NCBI GenBank assembly: GCA_050943415.1
Contig: JBMNPD010000003.1
Location: 3,962 to 67,961 of the forward strand
DNA length: 64,000 bases
From: Candidatus Dojkabacteria bacterium
Lineage (GTDB): Bacteria > Patescibacteriota > Dojkabacteria > SC72
Direction: 5' to 3'
Notes under the pieces: model-generated
Databases searched by the model: none
What the model was told of the DNA's origin: nothing
What the model saw: the letters and a program-made list of their open reading frames with translations, nothing else
Translations under genes and position numbers: made by a program
In this document: positions 7,271 through 58,346 of the stretch, in pieces
Position numbering within the stretch: position 1 is the stretch's first letter
How the letters are laid out: each line of letters opens with the position of its first letter

Positions 7271-8710
7271 CTAATTAATTTTACCTGAGAATCCAGAAAA
7301 TATTGCAATTGCTAAGATAGACCACCATATACTTACAGTTAGTAAATCACTTACAGCATTTTTAAACATACCTTTTTTAACATAGACAAATATCTCTATG
7401 CATAGCAGAATAAATACAAAGAGTACTATACCTAAACTGATTCCATTCCCAATTGATAGCGAAACTATTGGAATTAATGATTTTCTAGGTTCTTCTTTCT
7501 TAAAATAGTCAGATATATCTAGTTCGGAATCATTTTCGTACTGATCAGCCATACGAATCAATACTCTGTCAGCTACATCTTTTTTAGGAAGTACTACTTG
7601 TATACCCTCTGGAGTTATATTGTATACTGGTATTATCTTTGAACCAGATATTATTTCTACAACTTCAAATTCTCCAGAAACTGTGAACGAAAGCATAAAA
7701 TGATCGTTTTCTTCAGATACTGTTACAGAGTTAACATCTACTTGTGGAGGAGTAGAGTCTATTCTGAATAACACTTTATCTGAATTTATATCTGTTCCTT
7801 TAATATTTGCTTTAATTGTATGGTCTCCCTCTGACCAATCAGCTTCTCTTTTTACTGTCCAATCAGGATTTGTTGTAGTAGCATTACCCACAACATTTTC
7901 TCCTTCATATATCTGAACTGTGTACTCTTCATTAACATTAACTACTTTTCCTGAAACTGCTAAACCTGGATCGTTGTATGTAGTACCGTTTGTTGGAGCA
8001 GATATACTTATACTTTTAATTTGTTCTTCCTTTTGAGTTACGGTTGTTTTAGGTTTAGAGGTTGGTGTAGGTGTTGACTTCGGTGTGGCTGGTGTAGAAG
8101 TTGGAGTAGGATTTGTTGGTTGTGTTGTTGTTGGTGCTGGTGGTGTTGTCTGAGCACTTTCTACTTGGCCTGCTACAGTTCCAAACATCTGAACAACTAA
8201 GGTGGTTTCTTTGCCAAGAAGTTTTCCATTGACTACAGCTATTCCAATATCTTTGTAATTAGCACTAACTATATTGGCCTTATGTGTAGGACTGGCCATC
8301 CAAGCCTCTATAACGCCCTCTGAGGTCTTGAAACCTTTTGCAAGGTTCTCTCCAGCGTATACGTAGTTATACCCTGCTCCACGAATAAATTGCCACGGTG
8401 TTTCTCCATTTGGACCAAAATGATCCCAGTATTGTTTCTCCATCATATCGTTTGCTTTTGCCAAGGCAGCAGATGCTAATCTAGAGTTACTGTTTAACGC
8501 GTTTAAACCCAACTTTGTTCTTTCATTGTTTGTTAATGAAATAATATTTTGAGAAGATATGGCACTAGCAACAGCTTGTTGCATTCCTAGTATGCCTCCG
8601 AAGCTATTTACAAAAATTAGTATGAAAGAGTAAATAACTATAGCTATTTTTCTAAGTAAATACGGTTTGTATGAGTTACCCTTGTTTGGTATTAGACAGT
8701 TTTTTATCAT
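7271..8710 (-). CDS. Membrane-anchored CAP/SCP (YkwD-like) domain protein with a Thr/Pro-rich linker
   Basis: N-terminal TM, CAP domain (NNERTKLGLNALNSNSRLASAALAKANDM...WMASPTHKANI), linker TTPPAPTTTQPTNPTPTSTPATPKSTPTPTSKPKTT, and C-terminal TM helices. Confidence 0.7.
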   Translation of the reverse strand: MIKNCLIPNKGNSYKPYLLRKIAIVIYSFILIFVNSFGGILGMQQAVASAISSQNIISLTNNERTKLGLNALNSNSRLASAALAKANDMMEKQYWDHFGPNGETPWQFIRGAGYNYVYAGENLAKGFKTSEGVIEAWMASPTHKANIVSANYKDIGIAVVNGKLLGKETTLVVQMFGTVAGQVESAQTTPPAPTTTQPTNPTPTSTPATPKSTPTPTSKPKTTVTQKEEQIKSISISAPTNGTTYNDPGLAVSGKVVNVNEEYTVQIYEGENVVGNATTTNPDWTVKREADWSEGDHTIKANIKGTDINSDKVLFRIDSTPPQVDVNSVTVSEENDHFMLSFTVSGEFEVVEIISGSKIIPVYNITPEGIQVVLPKKDVADRVLIRMADQYENDSELDISDYFKKEEPRKSLIPIVSLSIGNGISLGIVLFVFILLCIEIFVYVKKGMFKNAVSDLLTVSIWWSILAIAIFSGFSGKIN

Positions 8711-14865: not shown

Positions 14866-15768
14866 CTATTTTCCGCTACTTTTTTTAACAATACGGAAAA
14901 TTCCATATATTACCCAGATTGGAGCTGTGAAGACAAGGATATATATTGCTAGTGTAACAAAGACTTTCAAGAAAGAAATATATGCTCTACTTGCATCTTT
15001 TAGAACACCTAATGGTTTCCAAGGAGTATCTTCTAGTGTAGCTCCAGTACTACTCTGCTTTAATGTTATTCTAATCGTTGAGTAATCTGTCTTATTGCTA
15101 TAATAGTCTAGTTGGCTTTGAATACTTTCTATATTTGCTCTAATCTCATTTAATTCTTTGTATACACTAATTGTGTCTGTAACTGTATCTGCTTTTTTAA
15201 GTATTTCCAAAAGTTGCGCTTCTGTATTTTGTGAAGTTTTTAGTCTTGCTTCTAAATCCATAACTTCTTTGGTTACATCTCTCATATCAATAGAGGAGGA
15301 GATGTTTTCACCTTCCATTTCTTTCAATGTCGAGAACACTTTGTCAAAATTCTCTACTGGAATTTTAATTTCCATATTTAGAACTCTTCTGTTTCCTTCT
15401 CCTACATCTACAAGATACATTACCTCTCCATCGTTTTTCTCAGATATTTCCCGTATTTCTTCTTCACTTTTGTTAAAATCATCCACTAATTTGCTAATAT
15501 TTCCTGTTTTTATAATTTTTGTTCTATCTACAGATGAAGTATCTAAACTTTTAGATGTTTCTATACTGTTAGATTCATACGGTGCCACAGCCATTTCATC
15601 ACGGTAGTACATAGGTGTTGATTGTTTTCCAATAGTTGTTTTTGTATATTTATTATCTTTATTTATGCTAAATAACAGTAAGGCTATTATTGGCGTTAGT
15701 AATAGCAGTACACCTATACTAACAATTATTATGAGGATTTTCTTTCTCCTTTCCATATGGATATTCAA
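14866..15768 (-). CDS. Membrane-anchored hypothetical protein with N- and C-terminal TM helices and a central coiled coil (possibly DUF4349-like)
   Basis: Topology only; no catalytic motif seen. Confidence 0.5.
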   Translation of the reverse strand: MNIHMERRKKILIIIVSIGVLLLLTPIIALLLFSINKDNKYTKTTIGKQSTPMYYRDEMAVAPYESNSIETSKSLDTSSVDRTKIIKTGNISKLVDDFNKSEEEIREISEKNDGEVMYLVDVGEGNRRVLNMEIKIPVENFDKVFSTLKEMEGENISSSIDMRDVTKEVMDLEARLKTSQNTEAQLLEILKKADTVTDTISVYKELNEIRANIESIQSQLDYYSNKTDYSTIRITLKQSSTGATLEDTPWKPLGVLKDASRAYISFLKVFVTLAIYILVFTAPIWVIYGIFRIVKKSSGK

Positions 15769-40025: not shown

Positions 40026-40550
40026 TTACCACAAATCAAGAAATTGGGAATCAAACCCACCATCTTTTGCAAGGTTTAACTTAGGTAACACCTCCTTTAT
40101 ATATAACCACCTATATTTCTTATTCTTATTACATAATCTATCCTTAACAGGGTTGTTTTTAATATATTCCAACAAATTATCAAAATCATTACTATACAAG
40201 ATCTCACGACATTTGAAAGTACCTTGAAAAAGAGAACCACAGAGTCCATGTCTTCTGTTATAGTACATACTATATGCTGTCATACTTTTATGCATCATTC
40301 TAGAAATATCACTCTTACTAGCACCCAACTTTAGAATTAGATGGTAGTGATTTGGCATTATACAGTAAGATAAAATAGAGACATCTAAAGTTTTTTCGGC
40401 TCTACGTAGACAACGGATAAAGTTGTTGTAATCTTTAACATCTAGACATATTCTGCACTTTCTATGACCACGATTATAAACATGGTATATGCCAAATTTT
40501 CTATAATCTTTTATCCTTTTACTATCTGACATTGTTAATATAATAAACAA
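40026..40550 (-). CDS. Small HUH-type transposase-like protein (IS200/RAYT family), copy B, with Phe at the presumed catalytic Tyr position
   Basis: IYHVYNRGHRK and the HuH box CIMPNHYHLILK. It has GSLFQGTFKCREI where copy A has GHLFQGTYKRKKV. Confidence 0.6.
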   Translation of the reverse strand: MFIILTMSDSKRIKDYRKFGIYHVYNRGHRKCRICLDVKDYNNFIRCLRRAEKTLDVSILSYCIMPNHYHLILKLGASKSDISRMMHKSMTAYSMYYNRRHGLCGSLFQGTFKCREILYSNDFDNLLEYIKNNPVKDRLCNKNKKYRWLYIKEVLPKLNLAKDGGFDSQFLDLW

Positions 40551-40774: not shown

Positions 40775-41719
40775 ATGGTAAAATATTTCTACATTATTAT
40801 GAAGAAGTTTTTATTTTTTTTGTTTGTTGCTGTTGTTTTCGTCATAGGATTAAGGTTTTCTAATGTTGGCAAGGTTGTAAATGCCACAGCAGATAGCAAT
40901 TTCAACCTGCTTTTGGAACAGCTATACGGTATTACAGCACAGGAGGTTAAAAGTTCTCCATATATCAAACTCATTACTATTAATTATGAAGGCGACATAG
41001 GTACTTTCTTCACAAATAAGCCATCACCTGTACTTGCCCTTGTAGATCTTAATTATCCTTTAAGCAACAAGAATATTTTGATTTCAACTTCACCTATTAA
41101 CTCACTGTACAACAACACTTTTATAAATGTACAATCATATACTTCTACAATTGATGAACTAACACTAGAAATTCCATTTACTTCAGAGATTAAAGGTTCT
41201 GTTTTATGCTCAAAACTAGAAAGAAAAGAGATTGAACAAACAGGAGTTTTAGGCTTAATGTCTCAGAAAATCAAAAGAACTTACAAAGGTGAGGAATTAA
41301 TAGCTGAAGAAATTATTGAACAGACTACACTAAGAGAACCTAGGCCTCAGATTGTCATAATAAAAGGGCCTAACGACACTCCTGATTCTGTTCCACAAAG
41401 AGGGTACAACTGTCCTTACTGGGAAGCATATATCGATAATATATCTGCTTCGGAGGAGGAGAAACAATGGCTTAAATTTACAATGAGGTTAGAATCTGGT
41501 TGTAACGCTGAAAGTAACAAAGCTTTCTATAAGGGACTTTTTCAATGGGATCCTTGTCTTTGGTACTCTTTATACCCAAATGACAATATTTTTGATGGTG
41601 AAAAGCAAATTCAGAGAACCATAGAGAAAGTTCGTGCTGGTGCAAATCCCAAAAAAATGTGGCCAGCTGTCTACAAAAAATATGTTGAACAGTATGGTGA
41701 ATTAAGCTGGTTACAGTAA
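40775..41719 (+). CDS. Secreted or membrane-anchored protein with a lysozyme-like (SLT/lytic transglycosylase-like) C-terminal domain
   Basis: N-terminal signal/anchor; RLESGCNAESNKAFYKGLFQW resembles the SLT ES...A.S..GA.GLMQ catalytic motif. Confidence 0.45.
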   Translation: MVKYFYIIMKKFLFFLFVAVVFVIGLRFSNVGKVVNATADSNFNLLLEQLYGITAQEVKSSPYIKLITINYEGDIGTFFTNKPSPVLALVDLNYPLSNKNILISTSPINSLYNNTFINVQSYTSTIDELTLEIPFTSEIKGSVLCSKLERKEIEQTGVLGLMSQKIKRTYKGEELIAEEIIEQTTLREPRPQIVIIKGPNDTPDSVPQRGYNCPYWEAYIDNISASEEEKQWLKFTMRLESGCNAESNKAFYKGLFQWDPCLWYSLYPNDNIFDGEKQIQRTIEKVRAGANPKKMWPAVYKKYVEQYGELSWLQ

Positions 41720-43727: not shown

Positions 43728-44903
43728 TTAAATCTTTTTTAGATATCTTGATACTATCCAACCTTCTGATTCTAATCCAAACTTTACTCTACACCAACCA
43801 TCTTTTTCTTCTAAAAGTATGAAAACTGAGCCTTCATCAACAGTTTCTAAAATTTTACAACTACTCCACTGACACTCTCTAATATTTACAAATCCATACT
43901 TTGGAGATACTACTTCTACTAATGAATTATCTCCTTTTACAATATTCAACACAATATCAAATGAAGAATCTTCAAAAGGCTGATCGTTAAATTTAAGAAG
44001 AACAAAAGACTCTTTCGCTTCTCCTATTTTAACTTTAGCCTCCATTTCAAATGATAGTTCAACACTTTCATTTGGTAGTATAACTTTGTCAGAGATACTT
44101 ACTGGCCTACTAAAACTCTCCCAAACTTGATTAATTGCAAATCCACTATTTTTCCCACTTGCAGTTGCAATATATATAGGGTCTTTATCTGTAAACCATA
44201 CAAAATCATTCATATTTGTTACAGTTAAAGTAACTTTTGATCTTTCCAATACTTTTACTTCTTTTGAATACTGTAAGTTCTCTATTTTAGCTTTATATTT
44301 CAGATCATTTACTTTTTTCCCTTTCCAATCAGAAAAAAGTTCTTTGACTGATTTTAAAAATTCACCTGTAGCTGGTTTGAATGAAATAGCTGAAATATCT
44401 TTATCATTCTTTTTAATATCCAAAGTTATTGCCTCTATTTCAGTAATATTCCACTTAGTAGATAGTTCATCTACTATTTCTTTAAGAGAAGATTTTGCTC
44501 TACTGGTCATTACTGGATTATTTGATAGGTAACCAATTAGAATTACTCCATTAGCACCTTCTATACCTGCATCCGCTTCTATATATCCTGATTTTCCTTG
44601 ATAGATCAAACCACTTTCATCTAAGAGATATGTGTATGGCAAATCTCTCAAATGTAATCTTGTGATAGAGTAGTAGTAGAGAAATTTAACCCATTTAGCA
44701 GGATCTCTAGAAAGTACAGGAGATACTGTATTTACAGGTGTTACCAATATTTTGTTTGGTTCTGAATATGTTTGAGAAGTTTTATCTAAAAGTGATGTGT
44801 CGAATTTTTGTGAAGTAACTGAGTAAAAAGAGAAAGCATCTACTACAGACGGAAGTGATAACATAATTATTACTAAAAAAATCGATAATAGGAATTTTTT
44901 CAT
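43728..44903 (-). CDS. Secreted protein with a C-terminal bacterial SH3 (SH3b) domain and a possible degenerate Amidase_2/PGRP-like N-terminal domain
   Basis: Signal peptide MKKFLLSIFLVIIMLSLPSVVDA. DLPYTYLLDESGLIYQGKSGY resembles the PGRP DIGYNFLIGxDGxVYEGRGW region. C-terminus GFVNIRECQ..CKILETVDEGSVFILLEEKDGWCRVKF is an SH3b domain. Confidence 0.5.
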   Translation of the reverse strand: MKKFLLSIFLVIIMLSLPSVVDAFSFYSVTSQKFDTSLLDKTSQTYSEPNKILVTPVNTVSPVLSRDPAKWVKFLYYYSITRLHLRDLPYTYLLDESGLIYQGKSGYIEADAGIEGANGVILIGYLSNNPVMTSRAKSSLKEIVDELSTKWNITEIEAITLDIKKNDKDISAISFKPATGEFLKSVKELFSDWKGKKVNDLKYKAKIENLQYSKEVKVLERSKVTLTVTNMNDFVWFTDKDPIYIATASGKNSGFAINQVWESFSRPVSISDKVILPNESVELSFEMEAKVKIGEAKESFVLLKFNDQPFEDSSFDIVLNIVKGDNSLVEVVSPKYGFVNIRECQWSSCKILETVDEGSVFILLEEKDGWCRVKFGLESEGWIVSRYLKKI

Positions 44904-44950: not shown

Positions 44951-45967
44951 TTACTGTTCTTCTAACAAATATGGAACAGGAAGATCTCCTTCATCTTCAA
45001 TCTCACTTTTCTCTAAGAATTCTTCTGAAACAGCACAGATATAGTAATTGATAGTTGCCAGATATTCATTCCCTACAAAATCTTTTACCTTAACATCTGA
45101 ATTGATTATATATGCAGGGAATATATATCCGTGTGAGAAATTTTTGAATAAATATGTAGAGACAAGCTGTTTAGGATCATCTTGAACTATTTCTATAGAG
45201 GACTGCTGTATTGGATTTTTTTCATAATAGCTCTCATTTATACTCATATACTTGCCAAAAATCCTCTTTGTATTTATAAGATTTTTAGGATTCACAGGAA
45301 GATATGCAGAGTATTTAATAATTGACGATGTGTCATAAAGAAAGATATTAAACTGATATAGATTACCTGAGCTATCTACAAGAAGTTTGTACGCATCTGA
45401 ATCTATTTCAAGAGAACCAAACCGAAAATCTCCAATACTATATTTTCCTGAATATATATAATTACCATCAGAATCTTTGGAAACATTAATTTCATCAACC
45501 TGACAATTAAAATAATCTCTAAAGAAGTCTACAACAGCGTTTTGGTCTACAATTTTTATTCCTAAATCTGTTTTCTCACGAGAAGTTAGACTTAAAATAC
45601 CCATATCATAATTGTATCCAACTAAAACTGTACCAAAATTCCAACTAGCAGAGTATTCTGATTCAGCAATTTTAGTAAAATCTGGATTCAACTTTTCAAT
45701 TAAATCTTCAATTGATGCCTTACTTGCTTTGATTCTATATACAGGGACATATTCATTTTGAAAAAGTGACTGTTTAGATGGTATTGTTTTTATACTGTAT
45801 ATATTCTGAGCTACAAATGGTTCAACAAATACTTTATTATTAACTATAGAAGAAGCACGTTGCTCTTTTTTATGTTTGGCAACAAGAAGAAAAATTGTAA
45901 CAAGGACCAGTCCTAGAATTACTCCTGCTAGAATAAACCATTTGTATTTTTTAAAAAAGTTTTTCAT
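44951..45967 (-). CDS. Membrane-anchored (signal-anchor) extracytoplasmic protein, function unknown
   Basis: I prefer the start at the second Met (MKNFFKKYKWFILAGVILGLVLV) at 45967. The track start at 46042 would overlap the upstream gene. Confidence 0.5.
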   Translation of the reverse strand: MKNFFKKYKWFILAGVILGLVLVTIFLLVAKHKKEQRASSIVNNKVFVEPFVAQNIYSIKTIPSKQSLFQNEYVPVYRIKASKASIEDLIEKLNPDFTKIAESEYSASWNFGTVLVGYNYDMGILSLTSREKTDLGIKIVDQNAVVDFFRDYFNCQVDEINVSKDSDGNYIYSGKYSIGDFRFGSLEIDSDAYKLLVDSSGNLYQFNIFLYDTSSIIKYSAYLPVNPKNLINTKRIFGKYMSINESYYEKNPIQQSSIEIVQDDPKQLVSTYLFKNFSHGYIFPAYIINSDVKVKDFVGNEYLATINYYICAVSEEFLEKSEIEDEGDLPVPYLLEEQ

Positions 45968-45974
45968 ATTTAGA

Positions 45975-48500
45975 TTATCTACAAAAACGAATAGAAGACG
46001 CAACCATGCTACCACATGCACTTGATACGGCCCCTCCAACATTTCGAGCTAAATCAGCGAGTTCTCCTTCAGAGCAACCTCTAGAAAGGAAGTATGATTT
46101 TGTCGAAGTTGCAGTTACACACTGTCCATCTACCATGAATTTGTAATGTCCACCATTGCCTGAAAGTAAATCTGCTCCCCATTCACGTACTACAGACGGA
46201 GCTCCTCCCCCATTTCTTCCTTGTACTTGATGTAGAAGTTCATGAGTAAATAGTTTTGAAAGAGTGACATTAGATTGCTTAGCTAACTTATCACCTTTAC
46301 AATAAATTTTATCAGCACTGTAACACCACGCCCAGTCAATACTAGCACACATACGATGTCCAGGACATGTGACAAGTTCTAACTTAGTTCCAAGTCCCAT
46401 ACTTGCTGCTACTTGGTCATAAATTTCCTCTATTGATCCAGAAAAGATTGGAACATCAGCATCTAGATCTTCAAAAAAGAAGTCTCCTCTTCCACTATCA
46501 AATATACTAAACCCCTCACAAGTAACTACTTCTACAGGAGAGATATGGGAATTTACAGATAAAAATGCAGAACTTCCAAAAATAAACTTGAAGAAAAGTA
46601 CCATTACAAGTAATACCCCAACAGAAACAAAAGCTAATGTCTTGGTTACTGCTTTCATTGTTGGCTCTGCTAACTTTGTAGCAACTCTCGTAGCAGTACC
46701 TGTTGCAATATTTCCAACTATATTCCCCAATGGCCCACCAACAACACTCCCTATGACACGATTTATTGCCTTTCCTAATAGCTGCATACCACCTTTTTCT
46801 ACCCATTCTTTTAAAATCTCTCCGGCAAATTTCTTGAATGCATCACTTTGAATTAGAAGATTAGCAATCTGTTCTCTAGATTTCCTTCCTATCTTTGAAT
46901 CAAAATACATTGACACTTTGTTTTGCCATCGTTGGATAGTATTAAATCGATATGCTAAATTACTTAATCTCTCATTCTTTTTTATAAATTCAATTAAAGC
47001 TTGGGCCTGTTCTTGAGAGAGTATTGATAAGACACTCTCCATATATGCGTCATTTATCTTTCCTTTGTCGTTATATAGTCTAGTCATATCAAATCCTTGA
47101 ATACTATTCCCAAACTTATTTTGAAATTTATTCATATTTTCGTAGACTTGGTAGGCATATAGCTCTCCATTCATTAAAGATTTAACACGTACAAGAGGGA
47201 TCCTATAATAGAATTTAAGCAACCGTTCATTAAATCTTTGAGCATATTGTGATCTCGATGTTTTTGCTATTTTGAAATTAATATCTGCTCCGTTAATATT
47301 AATCTTGTTAAACCCACGCACTCCACCTTCACTTAATGTTCTGCTTGCTCCATAATCTACGGGATTGAACCAATGTTTATTTGAACGATTAAAGAAGTTT
47401 CCTGTTATGAAAAGATCACCTGCTTGAATTTGACCAGTACCCTTAAGAGAAGACCAGAAACCATCCATCCTACCGGCAAAAGCTGCAGCTCTCATACTTC
47501 CTGACATACTTCTATTTGCATACATTAATTTTATTTCCTTTTCTAACGCTTTTATTTTCTCTTTTTTATTTGGATCATTACTGTTTTTTAATCTGTTAAC
47601 CTCGTCTTTATATCTTCTAATCTCCATACTATTTTTCCGTTCACTTGTTTTTCTTTGTTCATTCGTTAATGAAGAATCTATATATCGCCGCGAAAGATAA
47701 TAATTTTGTGCCTTTAACATATCACCAGCACTTTCTGCTTCTACTGCCTTGTCACGTATTTCTTGACCCTCAACAAAGACATATACATTTTTGTCATATA
47801 ATAAAGACTTTTTTTCTTTTGTATCTTTTGCTTTCTCTATCCAATTCTTATATTCACCGAATTTTTTTTTAGCTTCTTCTTCTGAACCGTATCTCTCTAT
47901 GAAGTCTGCCAAGGTATATGATTTATTTGGATCTATTAAATGCTTATCTATTAATTGCTCTATCCTTTCTTCTGTACTTATCGCTTTAGCAGAATCAAAG
48001 TTTTCTATTTGCTTCAATCTATCAAATGCTCCATGTAGGTTTGACATAGCTAGAACTGTTTCCTTATCCAATCCATGTTTTTTAGCCCACATACTACCTA
48101 GCAACGCCTGTATTTCATCACCAGCCCAGAAAGCTTTGTTAACTTTTCTGTTCGCTTCATATTTTGTAAATGTTTTATCTAAGAAGCCTGTAGGATCTTT
48201 TAATGCTTTTGGTATATCTTTGGCATTGAGCTTCACTTTATTCCGTTTTCCTTCTCCGTATTTAACACTAAGTAAATCGTAGTTAACAACATCTTCAAAT
48301 GCGTCCATTGTTGATTTGTTTACAAACAGGAGAGGATTTTCAAGTGTAGCAACAAGAGCATCTGCAAATTCAGAGGTACCATCTATGCCTGTGACCTTTA
48401 CTGGTTTAACCTTTGCAGGATGTTTTTTTGTTTCTGCAAAAATAAAATCATATATGGAACCCAAAGCATCTTTATACTGTTTAGGTTTCTCTTTAGCCAT
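45975..48500 (-). CDS. Large bitopic protein (841 aa): about 620-aa cytoplasmic region, one TM, about 190-aa Cys-rich extracytoplasmic domain with an HExxH motif
   Basis: No signal peptide. TM at LAFVSVGVLLVMVLFFKFIFG. C-terminal domain has LFTHELLHQVQGRNGGGAPSVVREWGADL, i.e. HExxH plus a downstream Glu, which is gluzincin-like, and 10 or more Cys. No Walker motifs. Confidence 0.5.
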   Translation of the reverse strand: MAKEKPKQYKDALGSIYDFIFAETKKHPAKVKPVKVTGIDGTSEFADALVATLENPLLFVNKSTMDAFEDVVNYDLLSVKYGEGKRNKVKLNAKDIPKALKDPTGFLDKTFTKYEANRKVNKAFWAGDEIQALLGSMWAKKHGLDKETVLAMSNLHGAFDRLKQIENFDSAKAISTEERIEQLIDKHLIDPNKSYTLADFIERYGSEEEAKKKFGEYKNWIEKAKDTKEKKSLLYDKNVYVFVEGQEIRDKAVEAESAGDMLKAQNYYLSRRYIDSSLTNEQRKTSERKNSMEIRRYKDEVNRLKNSNDPNKKEKIKALEKEIKLMYANRSMSGSMRAAAFAGRMDGFWSSLKGTGQIQAGDLFITGNFFNRSNKHWFNPVDYGASRTLSEGGVRGFNKININGADINFKIAKTSRSQYAQRFNERLLKFYYRIPLVRVKSLMNGELYAYQVYENMNKFQNKFGNSIQGFDMTRLYNDKGKINDAYMESVLSILSQEQAQALIEFIKKNERLSNLAYRFNTIQRWQNKVSMYFDSKIGRKSREQIANLLIQSDAFKKFAGEILKEWVEKGGMQLLGKAINRVIGSVVGGPLGNIVGNIATGTATRVATKLAEPTMKAVTKTLAFVSVGVLLVMVLFFKFIFGSSAFLSVNSHISPVEVVTCEGFSIFDSGRGDFFFEDLDADVPIFSGSIEEIYDQVAASMGLGTKLELVTCPGHRMCASIDWAWCYSADKIYCKGDKLAKQSNVTLSKLFTHELLHQVQGRNGGGAPSVVREWGADLLSGNGGHYKFMVDGQCVTATSTKSYFLSRGCSEGELADLARNVGGAVSSACGSMVASSIRFCR

Positions 48501-48512
48501 ACTTTAATCAAA

Positions 48513-49871
48513 CTATTTAAACATACTACCAATTAATGGTATTCCTGACAGACTTGTTTTGACGGCAGTTGCTGTGTCTCCTACTTGTTTTGACACTGTA
48601 GGAGGAACTATGACAGCTGCCATAGCAGGAGCATTTGCAGCAGCGTATATTGCAACTATTTTAACAACTGCAAGCATAAATCCACCAACCTTTCCATCTA
48701 CAGCTTCTTCACCCGCTAATGATGTTGGAAATGCCAATGTTATTCCTTTTGACTCTGCATAATAAGGTAGGTTAACAATTGCATATGCTATCGGGAAAAC
48801 TAATACATTTCTTAAAGCGGACTTAAATATATTTATAGTTGATGCTTCATTGCCTGGTAATGCACCAGCAAATATAGCCAATGGAGCAAATATTACACTC
48901 ATTATTATTCCTAAATATGCTTTTAAAAGAGTAATCCAAAGCTTTACCATACCCCAGAAGACAATTCCTATGGGAATTAAAGTTAACAAAAGACCAATGA
49001 TACCAACTGTGGTAGCAGTCCCACTTTTAAACACACCCGCGATTGTAAGTATAACAGTGACTAAAGAATTAGTACCAGAAAACAATTTAAAAGTAAAACC
49101 TGTCTTACTAAAGAAATTACCAAACATGGTAATTGGATTCGTTATCTTCACTCCTTCACCCATTTCAGGACCTCCATATAGCAAAATCTGAACAAGCTTC
49201 ATAATGAGGGCTCCAATGTCTATAATCAAACCTATGATTGCAAAACTAAATGTTACAAGTACCAAAGCTACAACTACTTTAGGGATAGAATTACCTACAG
49301 TAACCATTATCTGACCTCCTATCTTATGTCTAAACATAATCATAAAACCAATAGCTATCATTATTACTACAAATCCTGTATACGCTATATTTCTAGTAGT
49401 CATCCACAGGACATCCACTTTCGAATTTCGTAAATCTGTATATCCTGCAGCGTATGTACTATTAGAATCCGCATATCCAGGTACCCACTGTTGTGCCAAA
49501 TGAGCAGGAACATCTACAGTTGGGACACTATTAAACAAGGAATATACTGCTTTCTCACTTGTTTCTAACAGACCCATTTTTGCAGAATCTGGAATAGTAG
49601 GATCATTCATAACTCTCTCCCCTCCTCTTGTACACGAAGGACAAGTTTCCATTAACATAGTTTCTAAACCACCATAGATTTGTTTAGCTATGAATTGTGA
49701 AATATTTTCACCCTTAACATCCGCGAATTTTTCTACTTTGTCTATTAGTTCAACCCAACCTGCAGTAGTATCTAGTACCTCTACTTCCTGAGCATAGGCT
49801 GTTTCTGAAATTGTACTAAATAGAAGAAACGAAAACAGAAAAGTTATAATCAATTTCTTTAGTTTAATCAT
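48513..49871 (-). CDS. Polytopic membrane protein with a cleavable signal peptide and about 130-aa extracytoplasmic N-domain; VirB6/TrbL-like topology
   Basis: Signal LIITFLFSFLLFSTISETAYA, a CPSC-containing soluble domain, then about 7 TM helices. The family assignment rests on topology only. Confidence 0.4.
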   Translation of the reverse strand: MIKLKKLIITFLFSFLLFSTISETAYAQEVEVLDTTAGWVELIDKVEKFADVKGENISQFIAKQIYGGLETMLMETCPSCTRGGERVMNDPTIPDSAKMGLLETSEKAVYSLFNSVPTVDVPAHLAQQWVPGYADSNSTYAAGYTDLRNSKVDVLWMTTRNIAYTGFVVIMIAIGFMIMFRHKIGGQIMVTVGNSIPKVVVALVLVTFSFAIIGLIIDIGALIMKLVQILLYGGPEMGEGVKITNPITMFGNFFSKTGFTFKLFSGTNSLVTVILTIAGVFKSGTATTVGIIGLLLTLIPIGIVFWGMVKLWITLLKAYLGIIMSVIFAPLAIFAGALPGNEASTINIFKSALRNVLVFPIAYAIVNLPYYAESKGITLAFPTSLAGEEAVDGKVGGFMLAVVKIVAIYAAANAPAMAAVIVPPTVSKQVGDTATAVKTSLSGIPLIGSMFK

Positions 49872-49895: not shown

Positions 49896-51350
49896 TTACA
49901 ATTTATAATATTTAGAAGACCTTTTAATAGCTTCCTGTGTTACTCTCCAATACTTATCAAAATTAGATGGGAAATCCTGCCCGGGAGCACTATCTGTTTT
50001 GCTTTGAAAGAACCTTAACATTGTAGGTGAATCATCCCATAAGCACCACACACCAATTTCTAAACGTGTTTCTACTACTATTGCTTTACAGGGTGTAGCA
50101 ACAAAGTGCATCAAGGAATCTTCTGAATTACTAGATATTACTTTTTTCTTAGATGCTTGCTGAGGAGAAAGAGTTGCCTTATGTAGATATGTCATAGCTG
50201 CTGTAGCACAACCTTCAGCTTCACACTCATATGGATCTCCAAATATTGAAGACATTTCAATCATTATATTTACTGGTCCAGTACAATCTCCTGTAGGACC
50301 AACATCTTCACAATCTTCATCTCCTTCTTCGCATTTTATACCGTGACAAGCATTCCATTCTGCTCTACTAAATGAATCCTCAAATACTCCTTTAATTCTA
50401 GCAACAATTTTCCAACACGCAGTTTCTAGGCCGTAATTCATTTCTGTTCTTAGATTCCCAACATCTAAGCAGCCATCTTCTGGTTCTATATCATACTTAT
50501 CTCCTCCTGGTATTTGTTGACGCCAATATAGTCCATCTTCATTATCAGAAGCCACATAGTTACTTTTGCCACCATTAAAATCCGATACGGCTACTTCTGG
50601 AGCACAAAATGTTTTCGGATCATGATCAGCATTTTTGATAATATACTCTCCTGATTCTAAAAGTTCAGTTATCTTTGGGTAAGCAATGAGTGATCCCTTA
50701 ACCATGAATTGCTGTCTTACTGTACCATCTATATTCTTTCGAAAAGTTTCTGCTTCTTTTGGTGCAAGAGCTCTACTTTGAGCAGCTTCGTCCAACACTT
50801 CTCCACTAGAATTGTAAGAAGGATCCCTAGAAGTAATTGTTTTTGTACTATTTTCAAAACCATCTTGACCTAACCAATATCCTAATGGATAAGTTACTTC
50901 TACTAATTGTATCTCTGCATCTTTATCGACAATGACATCTCCACCTACTACCGTACCATCTTTGTAGTCAATAGTACCAGTACCATCTGAACATAAAAGA
51001 GTATCTGATTCTAGTCGATTTGCCACGCTATAACCTCTTTTGCATGACCAAGCTGTTCCCCTGCCCACTATACTACTGGACCCTAAAACAACTTCTGTAA
51101 TATCTACTGTTTCCGAAGCAGGTAGTATCGTAACCTTCATACCATTTTCTTCTGGAAGTATCTTTTCTTCTACTACCTTAGATTTTACTCCACCACAACT
51201 TGTACATTCTTCTGTAGATATTACTTTTATCTCAGTAGCCTTTGTTCCTATATTGATTCTGTTTGTAATTTTTACAACAAAGAAAGAAAACGTTACTAAC
51301 ATTATTAAGAAATAGAGACCTTTTTTGTTTTTTCTTCTTGGTTGCATCAT
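49896..51350 (-). CDS. Secreted Cys-rich protein (484 aa), unknown function
   Basis: N-terminal anchor/signal LYFLIMLVTFSFFVV, more than 20 Cys, an acidic Cys cluster EEGDEDCEDVGPTGDCTGP...YECEAEGC. Confidence 0.5.
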   Translation of the reverse strand: MMQPRRKNKKGLYFLIMLVTFSFFVVKITNRINIGTKATEIKVISTEECTSCGGVKSKVVEEKILPEENGMKVTILPASETVDITEVVLGSSSIVGRGTAWSCKRGYSVANRLESDTLLCSDGTGTIDYKDGTVVGGDVIVDKDAEIQLVEVTYPLGYWLGQDGFENSTKTITSRDPSYNSSGEVLDEAAQSRALAPKEAETFRKNIDGTVRQQFMVKGSLIAYPKITELLESGEYIIKNADHDPKTFCAPEVAVSDFNGGKSNYVASDNEDGLYWRQQIPGGDKYDIEPEDGCLDVGNLRTEMNYGLETACWKIVARIKGVFEDSFSRAEWNACHGIKCEEGDEDCEDVGPTGDCTGPVNIMIEMSSIFGDPYECEAEGCATAAMTYLHKATLSPQQASKKKVISSNSEDSLMHFVATPCKAIVVETRLEIGVWCLWDDSPTMLRFFQSKTDSAPGQDFPSNFDKYWRVTQEAIKRSSKYYKL

Positions 51351-53218
51351 AGATTATTAACCATTTTACCTTTATATCTCTTATTTTTGCCTGATTTAAA
51401 GTATATTACACTTCCCACAACAATTAAAGTAAAAGATGCTAACAAAGCGTAAATCATATCCTCTACCACTCCCGTTTTTGGTATTGAGCCACTTGTAGCA
51501 GTAATGTTTTCATTTGATGTTGTCGATATTGACGGATTGCTTACAGGTAAAGATGATCCATCTGTTGCTCCAACTATACCGTAATTTGTTAATTTTGGAA
51601 TTTTACTTGTAGATGTACTTGTTGGAATTGATGATATATCTTTCAGATCTACATCTATATCTATACTTTCCACATCTTTCATCGTTGTTGTTTGTGTTTT
51701 AACATCAAATGTTGTCATTATATCCAAAGTTATTCTATCTGGAGATGTATATTCAAAATATTTAGTACCATCTTCACTCCAACTGTTTGATACTGTTAGG
51801 GTAAATAGGCCAGCATCTCCTATTAGTGTAGCAATCGGAAGACTTTTACCTAATGTACCAGTTTCGTCAGTATCTTCTATACTTGCTATCAAAATTCCTT
51901 CTCCATGTGATGGCATGTTGCTAAATTTTCCTTTTATGCTCTTAAATGCAGGAGGTGAACTTAATGTTGCAAACGAGTCTATACTGTATTTAGCACCGTT
52001 ATTATCGTAAGTATTTTGTCCTGATTTTATTTCATAGTAATATGTTGTTTCTGGTTGTAGCTTTGATACATCAACATAGTGTACATAGTATTCTCCTTGT
52101 GATACTAAACCATCTCTAGTATCTTTAGCTGTACTGTTTAAGTTTGACTTACTTGTTCCATAATTTACAGATCCTTTTTCTTTTTCTTTTGAAACCCAGA
52201 TCACTGTAAATCCAGTATCTGTAAGATTCGTTACTTTTACACTCTTCTCTCCTGTAACTGTAGTTGTTACTGGTGATACTGCCTTAGTAGAGAGATTTTC
52301 CCAAGGTAATTGGTGAACTATTCTGTATATCCTTTTAAAAGTTTCTTCCTTTGGTTCAGGAGTTGGTGCAGGCGTGGGGGTTGGCGCTGGTCTAGGAACG
52401 GGTGTTGGTGTAGGAGTCGGTATCTCGTCATATGCAACTAGTTTTGCTCCATCAGGTATAAACGAATACATATCTGTTCTTTCTGCCAATGCTAGAGTAT
52501 TTGATGCTGTTAATTGTCCATCGTTATTAAAGAGTGATGAATATACCCCTTCTACTACTGCTCCTCTATTTGTTTCTGAGATTGCTACTATGGTTATGCT
52601 CGTAGTATTTGAGATTGTAACTAGACTTTTATCAGAGATGCTTCTTAAGGATGCTAGATCTATCAACCAAGTTCCTTTGTCTTCTTTTACTACAGCAGAG
52701 ACAGGGTATGTTGATTTGTCACTTAGTATTGCATAGATTATTGGGTTGTCTCCTGATTTCATTGTAATAGATCCAAATATTGGGTGTGGTGTTACTTGTT
52801 GTGGTGTAATAGATGGTGTGGTGAATGTGAACTTTTTACCTCCTTGTGCTGCATATTTGTCTGTCCCAGAAAGAATTGTAAAATCATATGTAGTGCCTTG
52901 TTCTAGGTTATCTACAGTTACATAGTGAGTTAGTTTTCTTCCTGAACCTCTTGTGTCTGTTACTTGTGATTTTTGTGTTCCGTTTTGGTATACAATTACA
53001 CCTCCTGTTAGTGGTGAGTCTGTTATCCATGAAATGTTTATGGAATTGGTAGTTATATCACTAACTACTACATTTTTTGGTTGTGTGTCAGCTGAAGCGT
53101 TGATAATTATTTGAACCACCTTGTATGTTGCAAACAGTAGTATTGGTAATCCTATGATGAGGATTGTTAATACTATATTGTTTTTAGTTCTTCTCTTAGG
53201 AAGTTGAGCAATTTTCAT
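51347..53218 (-). CDS. Cell-surface protein with two FN3-like domains, a Pro/Thr linker and a C-terminal sortase-type sorting signal (IPKTG)
   Basis: FN3-like VVVSDITTNSINISWITDSPLTGGVIVYQ...TTYDFTIL and VTNLTDTGFTVIWVS...TTYYYEIK. Linker PTPTPTPVPRPAPTPTPAPTPEP. C-terminus SIPKTG + VVEDMIYALLASFTLIVVGSVIYF + KSGKNKRYKGK is a tripartite sorting signal. Confidence 0.6.
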   Translation of the reverse strand: MKIAQLPKRRTKNNIVLTILIIGLPILLFATYKVVQIIINASADTQPKNVVVSDITTNSINISWITDSPLTGGVIVYQNGTQKSQVTDTRGSGRKLTHYVTVDNLEQGTTYDFTILSGTDKYAAQGGKKFTFTTPSITPQQVTPHPIFGSITMKSGDNPIIYAILSDKSTYPVSAVVKEDKGTWLIDLASLRSISDKSLVTISNTTSITIVAISETNRGAVVEGVYSSLFNNDGQLTASNTLALAERTDMYSFIPDGAKLVAYDEIPTPTPTPVPRPAPTPTPAPTPEPKEETFKRIYRIVHQLPWENLSTKAVSPVTTTVTGEKSVKVTNLTDTGFTVIWVSKEKEKGSVNYGTSKSNLNSTAKDTRDGLVSQGEYYVHYVDVSKLQPETTYYYEIKSGQNTYDNNGAKYSIDSFATLSSPPAFKSIKGKFSNMPSHGEGILIASIEDTDETGTLGKSLPIATLIGDAGLFTLTVSNSWSEDGTKYFEYTSPDRITLDIMTTFDVKTQTTTMKDVESIDIDVDLKDISSIPTSTSTSKIPKLTNYGIVGATDGSSLPVSNPSISTTSNENITATSGSIPKTGVVEDMIYALLASFTLIVVGSVIYFKSGKNKRYKGKMVNNL

Positions 53219-57362: not shown

Positions 57363-58346
57363 TTAATCATGGATTAACACATAATCACCTTTTTCAAAAA
57401 TACCATACAAATATTTTGCATCCTCTACTAGCATTCGTATACATCCACCACTAATCCGTTTACCAATATTACTTTCAGACTCTACCCACCTACTACCATC
57501 AGATCTGGGTATCCATATCAATCCGTGTAAACCATACCAAGTCGATTTAGTAGGTTCATAGTAAAACGCCATCCAGTAAGGCATATATTTATTACCTGGT
57601 GCTATCGGTTGTAAACCCTTATCCACTATCTTGAATACACCTCTTACTGATGAATCTTCTCTAGCACCTGAAAGGAATATTTCTCTAACAACTACACCAT
57701 CAATCCAGACATAAAGCTTTTGTTGAGTATTATCTACTTCTATATATTTGTATGCAAACTTTCCATCAGTTGAAGCTGTCATTATAGATGGAATCTCTAC
57801 AATTATGTCATGCTCACCACTACGATATTTAGTATTTAATGAATTGTAAACAACAGTATAATTAGGAACATACTCTGAAATTCTACTGAGGTATTCTCCT
57901 TTTGAGTTTTTGACTAATTCTTTTTTCGAATACAAAGGAGAAAAATATTTCTCTACATCTGAGTGCACCCATGTGTTAAATAGGTCTTTAGATATGTCTC
58001 CATCTTGAATCATCTTAAGAAACTTTTCGTTTTCTAACTTTTTGCAAAAATCCATATAACAGAAAAGAATATTGTAATTTGGACTATCTGTGACTCCAAC
58101 AACTTCTGTAGTACTAGCAGAAGCTACTGTAGGAATTAATGTCTCTACTTCCACCTCCTTTATATCCTCTTGTATGTATTTCACTAAATCTTCGTTCCTA
58201 TTCTTAGAAAGCATTAAAAGACCTATCAGTAACATTGCAAAGGACCAAATACACAAAACAAAAATAAGAAGATTCTTACTTTCCAACAATCCTTTAGAAA
58301 GAAATTTCATAGCAAATAATGTATATGAAAAAACCGTATATTTCAA
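57363..58346 (-). CDS. Membrane-anchored L,D-transpeptidase (YkuD domain) protein
   Basis: N-terminal TM. C-terminal YkuD catalytic motifs GLHGLIW and SGGCIRM (His/Cys dyad). Confidence 0.75.
   Translation of the reverse strand: MKYTVFSYTLFAMKFLSKGLLESKNLLIFVLCIWSFAMLLIGLLMLSKNRNEDLVKYIQEDIKEVEVETLIPTVASASTTEVVGVTDSPNYNILFCYMDFCKKLENEKFLKMIQDGDISKDLFNTWVHSDVEKYFSPLYSKKELVKNSKGEYLSRISEYVPNYTVVYNSLNTKYRSGEHDIIVEIPSIMTASTDGKFAYKYIEVDNTQQKLYVWIDGVVVREIFLSGAREDSSVRGVFKIVDKGLQPIAPGNKYMPYWMAFYYEPTKSTWYGLHGLIWIPRSDGSRWVESESNIGKRISGGCIRMLVEDAKYLYGIFEKGDYVLIHD

Follow-up and report, generated by a model that had tools for sequence, protein, structure and literature searches.

Mostly uncultured bacteria of the candidate phyla radiation (CPR, also known as Patescibacteria) leave open the question of how they build, remodel or breach cell walls. 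A stretch of 64,000 nucleotides from a metagenome-assembled Candidatus Dojkabacteria genome (GenBank assembly GCA_050943415.1, contig JBMNPD010000003.1, positions 3,962 to 67,961; hereafter the window) raises this question through one gene on its minus strand, g841 (45975..48500; ATG start, 841 amino acids (aa) plus stop codon), whose NCBI record reads 'hypothetical protein ACOX6Q_01210 [Candidatus Dojkabacteria bacterium]'. What does this protein do? With somewhat more belief than doubt, we read it as a membrane-anchored extracytoplasmic peptidoglycan peptidase, with an unclassified gluzincin head, that works with a cognate membrane-anchored partner encoded by the adjacent gene g363. Membrane-anchored wall hydrolases are of a known kind; what is new in this one, as described below, is its catalytic family and architecture, the recurrent exchange of the cassette and a partner that co-varies with it. 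The head represents a new conserved catalytic domain covered by no Pfam, NCBIfam or PDB family, and it provides a clear enzymatic handle on a lineage-wide seven-gene envelope operon of Dojkabacteria.

The protein is predicted to be bitopic, with its N-terminus inside and its C-terminus outside (N-in/C-out). About 615 N-terminal residues without a signal peptide (the first 60 contain no hydrophobic stretch, with a top Kyte-Doolittle (KD) 19-mer score of 0.88) are followed by one transmembrane (TM) helix and a 191-residue Cys-rich C-terminus. The single strong hydrophobic segment covers residues 615-650 (core 621-649, KD up to 2.66) and belongs to a membrane region (residues 581-650; 46551..46760, minus strand) made up of a Gly-rich hydrophobic segment at 582-600, a K-rich loop (KLAEPTMKAVTK) and the TM helix at about 621-649, of which the AlphaFold2 (AF2) model renders residues 591-650 as one continuous helix. 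The Gly-rich stretch is weaker in g841 (KD 1.25) and is a truly hydrophobic segment in many homologues. The orientation follows from the positive-inside rule, since the 20 residues before the TM helix (601-620) contain one Arg and three Lys, while acidic or neutral residues make up the 22 positions that follow it. The distribution of cysteines points in the same direction: all nine of them lie within residues 661-840 and none in residues 1-660, and across about 100 family representatives the density is 0.01-0.05 Cys per 100 aa before the helix versus 4.2-4.3 after it, for both of the head types introduced below. The cytoplasmic housekeeping proteins of the window contain 0.89 Cys per 100 aa; 5.5 cysteines would be expected in the N-terminal domain (N-domain), so that the probability of finding none is about 0.004 for g841 alone. 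A previous sequence-only reading of this gene had described a large N-terminal part without a signal peptide, one TM helix and about 190 residues outside, and hydropathy, the positive-inside rule and the cysteines all agree with it, although its count of ten or more cysteines has to be lowered to nine. Placement of the N-domain outside by way of a second TM helix is unlikely for some 600 residues that lack a signal peptide.

What lies outside is probably an active, conserved zincin, as judged from the alignment, the AF2 model and the Foldseek search. This extracytoplasmic head (residues 684-841; 45978..46451, minus strand), an unclassified gluzincin-like zinc metallopeptidase domain, carries the motif HELLH (residues 753-757; 46230..46244, minus strand) in a predicted helix at 744-763, with H753, E754 and H757 as the proposed zinc-binding and catalytic residues, and the motif REWGAD (residues 772-777; 46170..46187, minus strand) in a predicted helix at 769-780, with E773 as the proposed third zinc ligand, located 16 residues after H757 (15 in between). 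By our composition estimate an HExxH would occur by chance about 0.01 times in g841; 59 family representatives carry the motif. In an alignment of 43 diverse head domains, which are 23-85% identical to that of the window, C734, H753, E754, H757, E773, Y786 and F788 are invariant (43/43), and Q760, W774, G775, A776, C726, C809 and C829 are conserved in at least 90%, giving a signature of HExxHxxQ ... EWGA(D/E) ... NGG.Y.F plus conserved cysteines. Because the catalytic residues are invariant over such a range of divergence, the alignment argues that the HExxH is more than a chance motif, and a pure signalling or scaffold role, which the sequence-only reading had offered as an alternative, is not favoured. 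C726, C734, C809 and C829 could form disulfides, and the Cys-richness of a domain outside the membrane makes disulfide bonding plausible.

The remote homology searches and the structure prediction that the sequence-only reading had called for on the C-terminal region are consistent with this view. A full-length AF2 model, computed from a 28-sequence alignment of members with an HExxH head, reaches a predicted local distance difference test (pLDDT) score of 85-95 over residues 681-841, and places strands at 707-735 ahead of the HExxH helix at 744-763 (pLDDT about 90), which is followed by the helix at 769-780 that bears E773. In the model this looks like the layout of a zincin or gluzincin and not like that of a non-peptidase module, and it suggests a corresponding geometry of the metal site; the predicted TM helix stands as well. 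When the model was compared with the PDB by Foldseek, a single match of the head stood apart, the minigluzincin selecase (4qhi_C; probability 0.98, root-mean-square deviation (rmsd) 2.0 A, 76 columns). The gluzincin-like character claimed earlier, an HExxH with a Glu 16 residues later, thus finds support in the residues that are invariant across 43 domains, the predicted helices and the selecase match.

The head nevertheless falls outside the known families. Searches of Pfam, NCBIfam, PHROGs and PDB sequences with the whole protein, its two halves and the family profile gave nothing above threshold. The head profile aligned 'LFRHELvHqiQ' with the ColH/ColT collagenase (M9) motif 'LFRHEYTHYLQGR' below threshold (E 0.11), and the eCIS_core/DUF4157 family (PF13699) gave sub-threshold matches in 8 of the 43 head domains (best E 0.04), while the window's own head had no PF13699 match and none of the 43 relatives reached the gathering threshold. 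What is shared with both is an HExxHxxQ-type motif; these echoes span only about 25 residues around it and, as sequence matches go, are no evidence of family membership. Passages of PMC4559962 describe, from the literature cited there, the minigluzincin family as minimal scaffolds. Like the minigluzincins (selecase, proabylysin and projannalysin) and the catalytic cores of the M48/M56 integral-membrane metallopeptidases, the head of g841, as modelled, combines a short sheet, an HExxH helix and a following helix. It is, however, only 18% identical to selecase, with a non-significant E-value, and about 50 residues longer; unlike the minigluzincins, it is extracytoplasmic, Cys-rich, C-terminal to a TM anchor and marked by its own EWGA(D/E)...NGG.Y.F signature.

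Homologues of g841 were collected with HMMER by scanning 1.84 billion cluster representatives exhaustively (E up to 1e-3, in a library clustered at 50% identity), which returned 186 relatives (representatives at 50% identity); a word-index search found only nine. Wherever a lineage is given in their source names, it is Dojkabacteria, and the remainder bear generic 'Saccharibacteria', 'Patescibacteria' or 'bacterium' labels of metagenome-assembled genomes (MAGs), with the same synteny wherever their contigs reach. Several members of the HExxH type are 1,090-1,280 aa long and contain an uncharacterised insertion of about 250 residues. Outside the family, the HExxH domain occurs in N-anchored proteins of about 470 aa, in a 1178-aa protein with NlpC/P60 and SLT domains and in a 1180-aa protein with a GDSL hydrolase, the combination found in P0136. 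Two such proteins, P0137 (L024, 8001-11537) and P0143 (L025, 6698-8116), are encoded on contigs that also encode RadA/Rad51, RPA (Rep_fac-A_C), GatD and TRAM proteins, and in one protein of this group the HExxH domain is combined with NlpC/P60, SLT and a TM helix at the N-terminus. Because RadA, RPA and GatD are encoded there, these contigs look archaeal by gene content, possibly DPANN, which suggests an inter-domain transfer of a wall-targeting module.

Within the family, orthologues agree in the entire N-domain, in the TM helix and in a juxtamembrane joint of 11 residues, and most of them carry another domain as head. The joint, SHISPVEVVTC in g841 (residues 651-661; 46518..46550, minus strand) and SHxxPxEVVxC across orthologues, is kept in both head types with P655 invariant, and it lies at the end of the homology between them or a few residues away. 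In seven of eight alternative heads tested, a Peptidase_M23 domain was matched (best E 2.2e-7); the orthologues P0003-P0010 were assigned to PF01551/M23, and MCK9368744.1 is an example already annotated as 'M23 family metallopeptidase [Candidatus Dojkabacteria bacterium]'. Other orthologues have a CHAP head, or M23 plus CHAP: in P0072 a C-terminal CHAP domain lies downstream of an HxH motif that we read as an M23 module, and in P0023 a CHAP domain comes after the TM helix with roughly 380 uncharacterised residues between. The HExxH and M23 heads are equally long (about 206 aa after the TM helix) and equally rich in cysteine. When the two were compared by hhalign, only the 17-residue joint aligned, and since there is no homology beyond it, the one head has replaced the other rather than diverged from it. 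We also considered HELLH as a disguised M23 'xxHL' motif, and rejected this: hhalign finds no homology of the heads, the AF2 fold differs, PF01551 does not match g841 even at E up to 10, and H785, which a forced alignment puts under the M23 HxH, is a Gly in P0002. The M23/LytM endopeptidases of these orthologues thus share with g841 the N-domain, the TM helix, the joint, the operon position, the head length and the Cys density, and their head, like that of g841, would be an outward-facing zinc peptidase, the two being interchangeable by recombination. They differ in that the head of g841 has no detectable M23 homology and carries HExxH plus Glu on helices instead of HxxxD/HxH on a beta scaffold. 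To our knowledge, classical M23 enzymes have no cytoplasmic domain of 580 residues.

The replacement has taken place many times. On a neighbour-joining tree of the N-domain and TM helix (83 representatives, 590 columns), parsimony requires at least 22 changes of head type; clustering of the library at 50% identity inflates the apparent randomness of head type, although the sister pairs and breakpoints are independent of it. P0011 (HExxH) and P0012 (M23) are 93% identical over residues 1-660 and unrelated beyond, P0043 and P0084 are 93% identical over 1-716 and unrelated beyond, and many more cross-type pairs have N-domain identities of 45-74%. At the DNA level, the homology between the loci L029 and L030 ends at codon ~654 and returns just past the stop codon, whereas between L031 and L032 it ends at codon ~716 and returns at the SH3 gene, the replaced block being exactly the head plus g363. 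Likewise, the gap between the window and its nearest M23-type relative (L026) spans the head and g363, while the window and the HExxH-type locus L004 are collinear throughout. The g841 family thus combines a conserved N-terminal region with C-terminal enzymatic domains that are unrelated to one another and are traded at a conserved junction.

That g363 is exchanged along with the head makes it the second subject of this analysis. The gene (44951..45967, minus strand) has an orthologue-supported ATG at 45967, 7 nt after the stop codon of g841, and encodes 338 aa, of which about 300 are extracytoplasmic and follow a TM anchor at the N-terminus. Its homologues fall into two classes, H (to which the window's allele belongs; 25-72% identity over the full length) and M (29-59%), between which BLAST matches are short and marginal, though hhalign still finds them homologous (99.2%, E 1.9e-19, 15% identity over 309 columns). 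In every locus having g363, an HExxH head is accompanied by the H class and an M23 head by the M class. Accordingly, the head types split on the g363 tree with one Fitch change, compared with a null mean of 3.8 and a minimum of 2 in 500 label shuffles, while all seven controls (the g841 N-domain, g391, g452, g484, g623, PcrA and the G5 gene) were at null. The same can be seen in the closest cross-type comparison, in which the g363 proteins of the window and L026 score 0.39, their flanking genes 0.71-0.82, and g363 of more distant HExxH genomes 0.48-0.52. Because its class always matches the head type and both are exchanged together, g363 is most likely the cognate partner of the head, as a membrane-anchored inhibitor or regulator. 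Where cassettes are exchanged repeatedly and a partner gene strictly co-varies with them, this is usually a sign of direct protein-protein specificity or of conflict. Both the head and the g363 ectodomain are small and soluble, with cognate and non-cognate pairs already set by the sequence data.

Conflict is what a second reading proposes, in which the head is a wall-degrading weapon or feeding tool directed at a host or competitor and g363 a membrane-anchored extracytoplasmic immunity protein; the head would be shown at a contact site or freed by cleavage at the joint, with the N-domain and TM helix serving for delivery and anchoring as in polymorphic toxins. Wall-targeting effectors with extracytoplasmic immunity proteins include Tse1/Tsi1 and TelC/TipC, and polymorphic systems include CdiA-CT/CdiI, Rhs and the LXG effectors of the type VII secretion system (LXG-T7SS). 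The hallmarks of such systems can be found here: a conserved N-terminal part, a sharp junction motif, unrelated enzymatic C-termini of at least three kinds (HExxH, M23 and CHAP) that are swapped often, and a downstream gene that co-varies perfectly with head type and whose product lies on the enzyme's side of the membrane. Moreover, the HExxH domain is common to archaeal-looking genomes, where it is fused to NlpC/P60 and SLT; archaea have been reported to use peptidoglycan hydrolases against bacteria (PMC12352652), and passages of another study (10.1101/2025.01.22.634366) present CPR bacteria as thought to be episymbionts. Nevertheless, we consider this reading fairly unlikely. The gene is a single-copy core gene that sits in a strictly syntenic operon in every locus examined, which gives it the look of a housekeeping gene and not of an accessory weapon; two or three kinds of head are far from the dozens typical of toxin families, and the window contains neither orphan cassettes nor a silent M-type copy. 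Furthermore, the two g363 classes are mutually homologous, neither a secretion ATPase nor a secretion system turned up in the vicinity, and a head on a linker of about 35 residues, tethered to the producer's membrane, would reach only the producer's own wall unless cleaved. Finally, L029 and L030 (the loci of P0011 and P0012) contain no g363: the SH3 gene follows directly after g841, and the head alone has been swapped, giving one HExxH and one M23 head with intact catalytic motifs, so that active-looking heads exist without the putative immunity gene.

A third question concerns the substrate. Since the slot of the head is filled by M23/LytM or CHAP domains in orthologues, and since the HExxH domain is fused to NlpC/P60 and SLT elsewhere, the substrate is most likely the peptide part of peptidoglycan. 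The cell-wall context comes from three independent lines, namely the equivalence with M23/CHAP in the same slot, the NlpC/P60 and SLT fusion, and the content of the operon, which together with its surroundings also encodes SH3_3, YkuD and G5 proteins. The sequence-only reading had pictured a membrane-tethered metallopeptidase that processes or anchors the neighbouring surface proteins. Motif, predicted fold and topology speak for the first part; the second, in which the head would be a protease for the maturation, shedding or anchoring of the products of g1240, g623 and g484, is in our view quite unlikely. In its favour, genes for large fn3 and Cys-rich surface proteins share the operon with g841 throughout the lineage, and minimal zincins and some M23 enzymes do cleave proteins. 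In addition, the protein of g623 (51347-53218, minus strand) is TM-anchored at its N-terminus and contains two fn3/Pur_ac_phosph_N-like domains as well as a Pro/Thr linker; its C-terminus runs from IPKTG through a hydrophobic or TM segment into a basic tail, resembling an LPXTG-like sortase signal that would need some processing enzyme; no sortase turned up among the window's open reading frames (ORFs) scanned. However, as the orthologues in L001-L007 were compared, the (I/T)P(K/N)TG motif is kept in the closer relatives, more distant orthologues ending instead in '...LLxDYG(I/V)', so that the tail is missing from many g623 orthologues whose g841 keeps the same head. Moreover, g484 and g623 do not co-vary with head type as a protease-substrate pair would be expected to, and the interchange with M23 and CHAP as well as the NlpC/P60 and SLT fusion point to murein.

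Returning to the wall peptidase with a cognate partner, we propose that some 580 all-helical, Cys-free N-terminal residues stay in the cytoplasm, that the chain crosses the membrane by way of the Gly-rich membrane-proximal segment and one TM helix, and that the joint then leads to a disulfide-stabilised zinc peptidase head, about 160 residues long, on the membrane's outer face. There, H753 and H757 of the HExxH and E773 on the next helix would bind zinc, as motif and model suggest, E754 would act as general base, and the invariant Y786 is a candidate stabiliser of the transition state. The head would cut peptide bonds of the organism's own wall near the membrane, either for growth or division or to open the wall for a surface structure encoded by the operon, which may comprise the fn3 surface proteins, the Cys-rich ectoprotein, the polytopic membrane protein and the SH3 wall-binding protein, and g363 would control it. 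Transmembrane control of wall hydrolases is known from FtsEX-EnvC, PcsB, RipC and CwlO. The FtsEX-EnvC type shares with g841 the idea of a cytoplasmic module coupled across the membrane to a tightly controlled extracellular peptidoglycan hydrolase; unlike it, g841 has no ABC ATPase and no sequence or fold similarity and would act as one polypeptide with one partner, so that the likeness is pure analogy.

Several observations weigh against this proposal. Zinc binding and substrate are both argued from motifs, the predicted fold and domain equivalence, and the last is no proof of a peptidoglycan substrate, as M23 and zincin domains can cleave proteins too. The selecase match has a Foldseek E-value of 1.9 and is distinguished by probability and rmsd only, and the spacing of 15 intervening residues between H757 and E773 is shorter than in thermolysin or M1. 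Regarding topology, the extreme Cys depletion of the N-domain is untypical of cytoplasmic proteins in the same genome (0.89 per 100 aa), and in many homologues the Gly-rich segment is hydrophobic enough for a second TM helix. As for the partner, two genomes (those of L029 and L030) lack g363 altogether, and its co-variation could partly be hitch-hiking across a 7-nt spacer between classes too diverged to recombine.

The frequent swaps at the joint and the strict pairing also allow a broader interpretation, in which the head and g363 form an ancient balanced two-gene polymorphism within a core operon: a wall cutter and its cognate inhibitor or immunity protein, existing in at least two non-homologous types (M23, alone or combined with CHAP, and a new gluzincin family that archaeal-looking and possibly DPANN genomes also have), would be shuffled between species at the joint and would set which partner or host wall an ultra-small epibiont opens, or discriminate kin from competitors. 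We put this forward tentatively, with doubt clearly outweighing belief; if true, the module would be a determinant of host range or conflict in a CPR lineage and not a housekeeping autolysin.

The N-domain (residues 1-580; 46761..48500, minus strand) is all-alpha in the AF2 secondary structure, with pLDDT mostly 70-90, and basic (101 K+R versus 76 D+E). No family, PDB or fold match was found for it in Pfam, NCBIfam, PHROGs, PDB sequences or Foldseek, which against the PDB returned helical noise only, and at residues 558-622 there is a weak, sub-threshold match to SseC (E=0.01). Its first ~60 residues are the most conserved stretch of the whole family (Y..LGSIYDFIF...KVKPVKVTG...ENPLLFVN in g841, Y..LGSIFDFIF...KVKP.K.TG...ENPLLFVN at the family level in the alignments), and this extreme N-terminus looks like a docking motif. 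A long all-alpha region with Gly-rich hydrophobic segments and a C-terminal peptidase is also the layout of a phage tail tape-measure protein such as Pb2 of phage T5, with its helical body, hydrophobic segments and C-terminal muralytic domain, and the top, non-significant BFVD matches are tape-measure and minor tail proteins. That g841 is a domesticated protein of this kind is nevertheless close to refuted and hardly credible: all BFVD matches have E above 0.04, probability below 0.25 and a TM-score of about 0.1, neither g841 nor any neighbour matched a PHROG, no g841 relatives were present in 50,697 phage records, PLSDB plasmids or IMG/VR, and the flanking genes are housekeeping genes whose order is conserved in every genome.

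The operon reads, on the minus strand, (YkuD) - g1240 (fn3) - g623 - g484 - g452 - g841 - g363 - g391 - PcrA, with gaps of 7-47 nt or short overlaps. In about 25 loci of other genomes this order recurs between RsmB/RsmE and PcrA/G5/TPR as far as each contig reaches, and a genome scan of 20 loci found the envelope genes 21-81% (mostly 21-50%) and PcrA 65-88% identical to those of the window. Because synteny holds across these loci and relatives are absent from the phage, plasmid and viral collections, the locus is a vertically inherited core envelope cluster and not a mobile element or prophage remnant. Upstream of g841, g484 and g623 (together 49896..53218, minus strand) are conserved members, g484 encoding an N-terminally TM-anchored, Cys-rich ectoprotein (15 Cys); g452 (48513..49871, minus strand), present in every locus, combines a signal peptide with an ectodomain of about 130 aa and six or more TM helices, and its conserved motifs, e.g. 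GFMIMFRHKIGGQ, are invariant without leading to a family assignment. Downstream, g391 (43728..44903, minus strand) encodes a secreted protein with a C-terminal SH3_3 domain in every locus reaching that far.

This gene content raises the possibility that g841 is the wall-opening hydrolase of a type IV secretion system (T4SS) or another trans-envelope machine, an analogue of VirB1, PrgK or CwlT, with g452 as a VirB6-like channel, g363 as a VirB8-like protein and the ATPases encoded elsewhere. The order of a polytopic protein, a hydrolase-bearing protein and an N-anchored ectoprotein resembles prgH ... prgK-prgL of monoderm T4SSs, whose wall hydrolases include PrgK of pCF10, TraG of pIP501 and CwlT of ICEBs1. 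Like these combinations of LytM, SLT, CHAP and NlpC/P60, g841 is TM-anchored, outward-facing and modular and is found beside polytopic and bitopic membrane proteins, and its relatives in an archaeal context carry NlpC/P60 and SLT just as the T4SS hydrolases do. The layout of g452 is compatible with VirB6/TrbL, and one of 15 orthologues gave a weak TrbL/VirB6 (PF04610) match (E 0.0017). Passages of one study (10.1101/2025.01.22.634366) also report T4SS genes in Dojkabacteria, with VirB1 homologues poorly linked to virB4. Still, this reading is very unlikely and was rejected, since the signature VirB4 was not found. The operon encodes no ATPase, nor did Pfam find one in the 29 ORFs of the window (most large ones) given to it; VirB4, the type IV coupling protein (T4CP) and other secretion ATPases are absent from these ORFs and from the ~25 syntenic loci, and neither VirB3 nor any of the former was found in the operon or the 64-kb window. 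A Walker A motif was searched for in g841 itself and none was found, in agreement with the sequence-only reading, which had seen no Walker motifs. The other 14 g452 orthologues have no TrbL match, the g452 profile matched nothing in the PDB, and the g363 profile matched neither VirB8-like nor NTF2-like proteins; moreover, one would not expect a structural VirB8-like protein to co-vary with the type of hydrolase. Unlike g841, the T4SS hydrolases have a short N-terminus and adjoin VirB4 and T4CP ATPases on mobile elements, and we know of no VirB1-like hydrolase with a 600-residue cytoplasmic domain.

The surroundings of the operon vary in a few places. The YkuD L,D-transpeptidase gene (57363-58346, minus strand) occurs only in the window and its closest relative, L004, and in one M23-type lineage a KilA-N gene (L001, 4354-5190; L002, 126-956) is inserted on the opposite strand between the orthologues of g1240 and g623. 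Near the operon lies a gene for a G5-domain protein (40775-41719, plus strand), whose C-terminus contains …YKGLFQWDPCLW…, possibly a transglycosylase-like motif. Between the TPR and G5 genes there is an IS200-like Y1 transposase gene (40026-40550, minus strand), which is found at the same place in L026 (8547-9053) and is absent from most other syntenic loci. Elsewhere in the window, genes for a 479-aa protein with a CAP/SCP domain (cysteine-rich secretory protein family; 7271-8710, minus strand) and for a DUF4349 protein (14866-15768, minus strand) likely encode further envelope or secreted proteins.

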